From assembly GCF_003991155.1 (NCBI RefSeq), contig NZ_CP031293.1: a DNA stretch of 64,000 bases, one strand, 5' to 3'. Both the position numbers and the translations under genes were made by a program. This DNA is from Escherichia coli (GTDB taxonomy: Bacteria; Pseudomonadota; Gammaproteobacteria; Enterobacterales; Enterobacteriaceae). The notes beneath the pieces are model-generated. The model worked only from the letters and a program-made list of their open reading frames with translations. It was not told where the DNA came from and did not search any database. Positions 1 to 4,273 of the stretch are shown here, piece by piece; position 1 is the stretch's first letter, and each line of letters starts with the position of its first letter.

Positions 1-4273
<4,273 letters not shown>

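Follow-up and report, generated by a model that had tools for sequence, protein, structure and literature searches.

Two insertion sequences of the same kind lie close to each other in one Escherichia coli chromosome and differ at a single base, and this base changes a residue of their transposase. Which of the two states is the older one, is the difference genuine and could it alter the enzyme? The window, i.e., the whole stretch of 64,000 nucleotides analyzed here (contig NZ_CP031293.1, assembly GCF_003991155.1), is E. coli chromosome that runs from ebgA towards parC. We favor the reading, with a probability of roughly 60%, that a private mutation, K210T, arose in the younger copy and weakened its transposase.

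Two IS4 copies that differ at one base

Copy 1 occupies positions 1699–3124 in the ebgA–ebgR intergenic region, and copy 2 positions 10626–12051 between mug and rpoD, both on the minus strand. A base-by-base comparison at an offset of 8927 confirmed what the preliminary description had stated, namely that over 1426 bp each the copies have one mismatch only, G at 2412 in copy 1 versus T at 11339 in copy 2, which corresponds to element position 714 on the plus strand. In the self-comparison at this offset, identity spanned 1698 to 3126 apart from this pair of positions; beyond the IS4 ends it thus takes in three flanking bases, one to the left and two to the right, that match by chance. Read on the minus strand, the codon is ACA in copy 1 (2411–2413, plus strand TGT) and AAA in copy 2 (11338–11340, plus strand TTT). 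The assignment of Thr to copy 1, with the surrounding peptide ...TLTLMDTGYY..., and of Lys to copy 2 hence stands. The variant residue has number 210 in the 442-residue transposase InsG and number 216 in a 448-residue ORF that begins at an upstream TTG.

Both elements are intact copies of classical E. coli IS4, an element whose family and mechanism are already known. Their terminal inverted repeats of 18 bp agree with each other at 16 positions, with ends reading TAATGCC..., and each copy contains a single uninterrupted transposase ORF without frameshift, of 442 amino acids or of 448 from the TTG. In copy 1 the shorter form extends over 1712–3040 on the minus strand with the ATG at 3040, and the TTG-start ORF reaches 3058. 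Pfam searches gave E-values of 3e-33 for Nterm_IS4 (PF13006) and of 8.7e-32 with Lys or 4e-31 with Thr for DDE_Tnp_1 (PF01609), all scores being far above the curated cut-offs. For the IS4 subgroup, De Palmenaer et al. 2008 (PMC2266710) described a single transposase ORF without frameshift, a DDE spacing of D(60~110)D(100~150)E and a Y-(2)-R-(3)-E-(6)-K signature in region C1, together with a length of 1400–1650 bp, a target duplication of 10–13 bp and ends of the type -AATR... (Table 1 of that work). Here, the triad D133, D209 and E314 has spacers of 75 and 104 residues, both copies contain the signature as Y307, R310, E314 and K321, and 1426 bp, duplications of 12 and 13 bp and the TAATGCC... 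ends lie within the subgroup description.

The TTG start precedes the classical ATG by six codons (window 3040–3058 and 11967–11985). In the RefSeq records that we fetched, nearly all of them annotated with PGAP, the IS4 transposase CDS has 1347 bp, which is the length of the TTG-start ORF. The 448- and 442-residue forms both occur in public databases and split the counts of "identical" proteins.

IS4 of E. coli K-12 (insG, WP_000483767.1) has the size of 1426 bp and the ends in common with both window copies, and like copy 2 it encodes Lys210. Compared with IS4 of K-12 MG1655, copy 2 differs at 5 of 1426 nucleotides and copy 1 at six. At the protein level, copy 2 contains two changes relative to K-12 InsG, G304A and R326L, to which copy 1 adds K210T. 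The insertion sites differ as well: K-12 IS4 adjoins nanX, whereas the window copies were found at ebgA/ebgR and mug/rpoD.

Origin of the two insertions

Copy 1 is flanked by a 12-bp target-site duplication, CAGCACTGTCCG, at 1687–1698 and 3125–3136, and copy 2 by a 13-bp duplication, CACCGAAAAGGTG, at 10613–10625 and 12052–12064; this 13-mer is single-copy at the empty site of strain LR-28. From these separate duplications it follows that the copies result from two independent insertion events. A composite transposon built of both copies was rejected for the same reason, either element being flanked by a matching pair of duplications of its own.

The closest complete genome, that of strain 1517k, showed zero mismatches to window positions 1–14500 outside the IS elements. 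It contains an identical IS4 at mug/rpoD, and its ebg site is empty, with the 12-mer present once. In a survey of 5,426 complete E. coli genomes, 38 had an insertion at mug/rpoD and 3 had one at the ebg site, but none had both. Moreover, the five nucleotide differences from K-12 IS4 are common to both window copies, and an A at element position 958 was seen in both of them and in the 1517k copy, but in none of the other full-length IS4 copies compared. From the empty ebg site in 1517k and the common five-nucleotide haplotype it follows that copy 1 descended recently from the local IS4 lineage, and that copy 2 is inherited and older. These two observations also agree with the earlier suggestion that one copy may be the source of the other, with a later mutation.

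An IS4 at the ebg site of other genomes might have pointed to an older, common insertion. Yet the ebg-site copy of LR-28, the sole one read base by base, belongs to a different haplotype from the window copies, and in the three ebg-site genomes the flanks are just 98.4–98.7% identical to the window. Orthology of copy 1 with the LR-28 copy was rejected on these grounds, and the ebg-site IS4 elements of the three other genomes are probably independent hits on a common preferred target.

IS4 is known for a strong target preference, and the likeness among its sites fits this behavior. We compared the ebgA/ebgR site (1674–1698 and 3125–3170), the mug/rpoD site (10600–10625 and 12052–12075) and the ycaL/aroA site of strain SMS-3-5 (locus L005, 1467–1526 and 2953–3020). 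All three consist of an A-rich run ending in ACG, followed by a GC-rich, partly palindromic stretch of 12–13 bp that becomes the duplication. On its 3′ side follows CGTTT at mug/rpoD and ycaL/aroA, and GCAAAAACG at the ebg site. Two of the three targets resemble terminator hairpins. BLAST alignments of IS4 copies located elsewhere in many genomes reach 25 bp into the ebg-site flank.

In the first 14.5 kb, IS content is the only difference between 1517k and the window: 1517k is without IS4 copy 1 and carries an IS621 element (IS110 family) between aer and nfeR (1517k locus L001, 7127–8510) that is absent from window positions 8065–8169. Further on, the relation becomes a mosaic, with 99.85% identity over 13551–34841 and later blocks mostly at 97.4–98.3% and one at 99.1%. 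The ygiL-yqiGHI fimbrial operon (window positions about 34850–40100), which 1517k lacks, occurs in 3,242 of the 5,426 genomes. This mosaic looks like the outcome of ordinary recombination.

Polarity and rarity of the Thr210 allele

Lys210 is the ancestral state, and Thr210 is a private, derived allele of the source genome. Lys was found at this position in insG of K-12 MG1655, in the ebg-site copy of LR-28 and in all relatives examined. A 31-mer centered on the SNP, for which megablast seeds only with the matching allele, occurred in its Lys version at 4,355 places in 2,369 of the 5,426 complete E. coli genomes; its Thr version had no match there. As none of these RefSeq genomes has Thr210 or IS4 at both sites, the source assembly does not belong to the set, although the Thr protein does have a RefSeq accession. 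The preliminary description had named Lys as the canonical residue and copy 1 as the carrier of the derived allele, and K-12 insG, the relatives and the 31-mer counts agree with it on both points. Searches with a Thr 61-mer returned no record at ≥99% identity among 2,547 records, and no Thr was seen at position 210 in the roughly 4,800 IS4 copies of E. coli. In a look-up of about 15 billion proteins, the exact Thr protein was on one contig (WP_164726264.1, AZR87576.1), presumably that of the source genome, and the exact Lys protein on at least 1000 contigs in its 442-residue form and on 760 in its 448-residue form. A Thr 25-mer likewise had no match in GTDB species genomes and none in JGI metagenomes, the Lys 25-mer control being found in 1 and 50 stretches, respectively. 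Both alleles could also have been common neutral variants, an alternative raised at the outset; with Thr a singleton, it is ruled out.

The sole exact match of the Lys 25-mer among GTDB representatives is located on a Klebsiella indica contig (locus L006, 5848–5872); the representative genome of E. coli evidently does not contain this exact 25-mer.

The opposite polarity, with Thr ancestral in this genome, or with copy 1 as the source and copy 2 as the derived element, draws on the symmetry of a two-copy comparison and on nothing else. Copy 2 is the ortholog of the 1517k copy in a genome where the ebg site is empty, and together with the uniform Lys of K-12, LR-28 and all relatives this makes it extremely improbable.

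An allele confined to one contig among the public data searched is expected from an error of sequencing, assembly or polishing no less than from a new mutation; with such an error, the two copies would truly be identical. Polishing of multi-copy IS elements is hard, and the surrounding 13 kb is without any difference from 1517k. On the other hand, cross-mapping of reads among IS copies would tend to erase minority variants and not to create them, and the change from CCTTTATCC to CCTGTATCC, a substitution outside any homopolymer, would not be a typical long-read indel. Chance could account for the finding of one substitution in the 1.4 kb of IS4 when the flank, about 13 kb long, has none. We hence consider an artifact at 2412 unlikely and proceed with K210T as a genuine mutation of copy 1.

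Residue 210 beside the catalytic aspartate

Residue 210 directly follows D209, the second catalytic Asp of the DDE triad. In an alignment with close relatives of 67–99% identity, Lys210 was present in 19 of 19 sequences. A wider alignment of 85 sequences, composed of InsG and 84 distant relatives of at most 49% identity, had Arg in 64, Lys in 17, Ala in 3 and Asn in 1, so that the position is basic in 81 of 85 and never Thr. Over 81–85 relatives, D133, D209 and K321 are invariant, and E314, Y307 and R310 nearly so. With Thr in place of Lys, the Pfam DDE_Tnp_1 score fell from 110.9 to 108.8 bits.

An AlphaFold model of InsG was built on an 81-sequence alignment (pLDDT 93.6, pTM 0.91). In the model, D209 comes right after a strand formed by residues 204–208, and residues 210–212 form a short helical turn. 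D209 and residue 210 are located where the fourth strand of the RNase-H-like core ends. In this fold, the second catalytic Asp usually follows a core strand in this way. When the model was compared with the PDB by Foldseek, the top five hits were all Tn5 transposase (E-values 3.7e-9 to 8e-8). In contrast to this structural match, PDB sequence searches with InsG alone and with the 81-sequence profile found neither Tn5 nor any other transposase, and hhalign of the profile versus Tn5 gave a low probability and aligned the YREK region alone (InsG Y307/R310/E314/K321 with Tn5 Y319/R322/E326/K333). As to the placement on a Tn5-type structure that had been suggested for this variant, the model locates D209 and has Tn5 as its best match, and the profile alignment covers the YREK region and not residue 210.

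Tn5 (IS50) transposase (PDB 1MUH, 3ECP) is, like InsG, an IS4-family DDE enzyme with a basic residue after the second Asp; its sequence, checked in 3ECP, reads D188-R189. The two proteins have about 11–12% sequence identity, and their DDE residues (D97/D188/E326 in Tn5 versus D133/D209/E314 in InsG) are differently spaced. K210 may be regarded as the counterpart of Tn5 R189 by analogy of position, as each comes right behind the second Asp of its triad.

For Tn5, R189C was isolated in a screen for altered target choice (Gradman et al., PMC2229646). The mutant transposed at 0.16 times the normal frequency, i.e., about 6-fold lower, with 3.7-fold higher target specificity; strand transfer was reduced 5.9-fold and paired-end complex formation was 23% versus 44%. 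According to the authors' conclusion, R189 is in contact with both target DNA and donor-backbone DNA adjacent to the active site. For IS10, a search of the literature for mutants of the corresponding residue, Ala162, yielded nothing usable.

Discussion

We propose that copy 2, between mug and rpoD, is the older inherited insertion with the ancestral Lys210, and that copy 1 would have arisen when copy 2, or an identical sister element elsewhere in the same genome, transposed. Copy 1 would then have gained one A-to-C transversion on its coding strand (AAA to ACA), giving InsG K210T. Conservation of the position together with the Tn5 R189C phenotype suggests reduced activity of the copy 1 transposase, since position 210 would match Tn5 R189 by analogy. 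Such an enzyme would be hypomorphic and not dead. The suspicion voiced in the preliminary description that the change could alter function is thus plausible, as residue 210 adjoins D209, is basic in 81 of 85 sequences and may correspond to Tn5 R189.

A genuine mutation might nonetheless be neutral, with InsG T210 transposing as well as K210. Ala or Asn in 4 of the 85 aligned sequences indicates that a basic residue is not strictly required, and the Pfam loss amounts to just 2.1 bits. In addition, the 90%-identity protein cluster of the transposase has 8,834 distinct member sequences, from which it follows that private missense variants in this protein are routine. Against neutrality speak the invariant Lys in the IS4-like relatives down to 67% identity, the prevalence of Arg or Lys without a single Thr in the wider alignment, the lack of Thr among the E. 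coli IS4 copies and the roughly 6-fold loss seen for Tn5 R189C (PMC2229646). Neutrality is therefore doubtful in our view, albeit an alternative to be taken seriously, and a weakened copy 1 transposase is the reading that we retain.

K210T might even be selected, by attenuating IS4 or by sharpening its target choice. The Tn5 mutant combined higher target specificity with lower activity (PMC2229646), and IS4 sites are already strongly alike. The allele, however, was encountered once, on one contig, it has not spread to other copies or genomes, and we saw no sign of selection, which makes this scenario very unlikely. By analogy, K210T could also be a natural counterpart of the engineered R189C, with lower activity and an even tighter choice of targets. 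Such a close parallel would combine an Arg-to-Cys exchange in Tn5 with a Lys-to-Thr exchange in InsG, and we give it little credence. Should it hold true, it would give access to the DNA-binding surface beside the active site of an unusually target-strict transposase.

As the ends of copy 1 are intact, the Lys transposase of sister copies could in principle move it; copy 1 should thus still be mobilizable, insofar as the IS4 transposase works in trans. For the host, K210T would be expected to have no effect.

Taken as a whole, the locus illustrates the ordinary life cycle of an insertion sequence, in which an element transposed within its genome, here recently, and the daughter copy then acquired a private point mutation. 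K210T has no bearing on host biology and is of little significance, being ordinary mobile-element decay. It is of mild interest for the family that a conserved basic residue beside the catalytic Asp is lost. Its equivalent in Tn5 is known to bind DNA, and K210T hence provides a cheap and testable prediction for the IS4 transposase.
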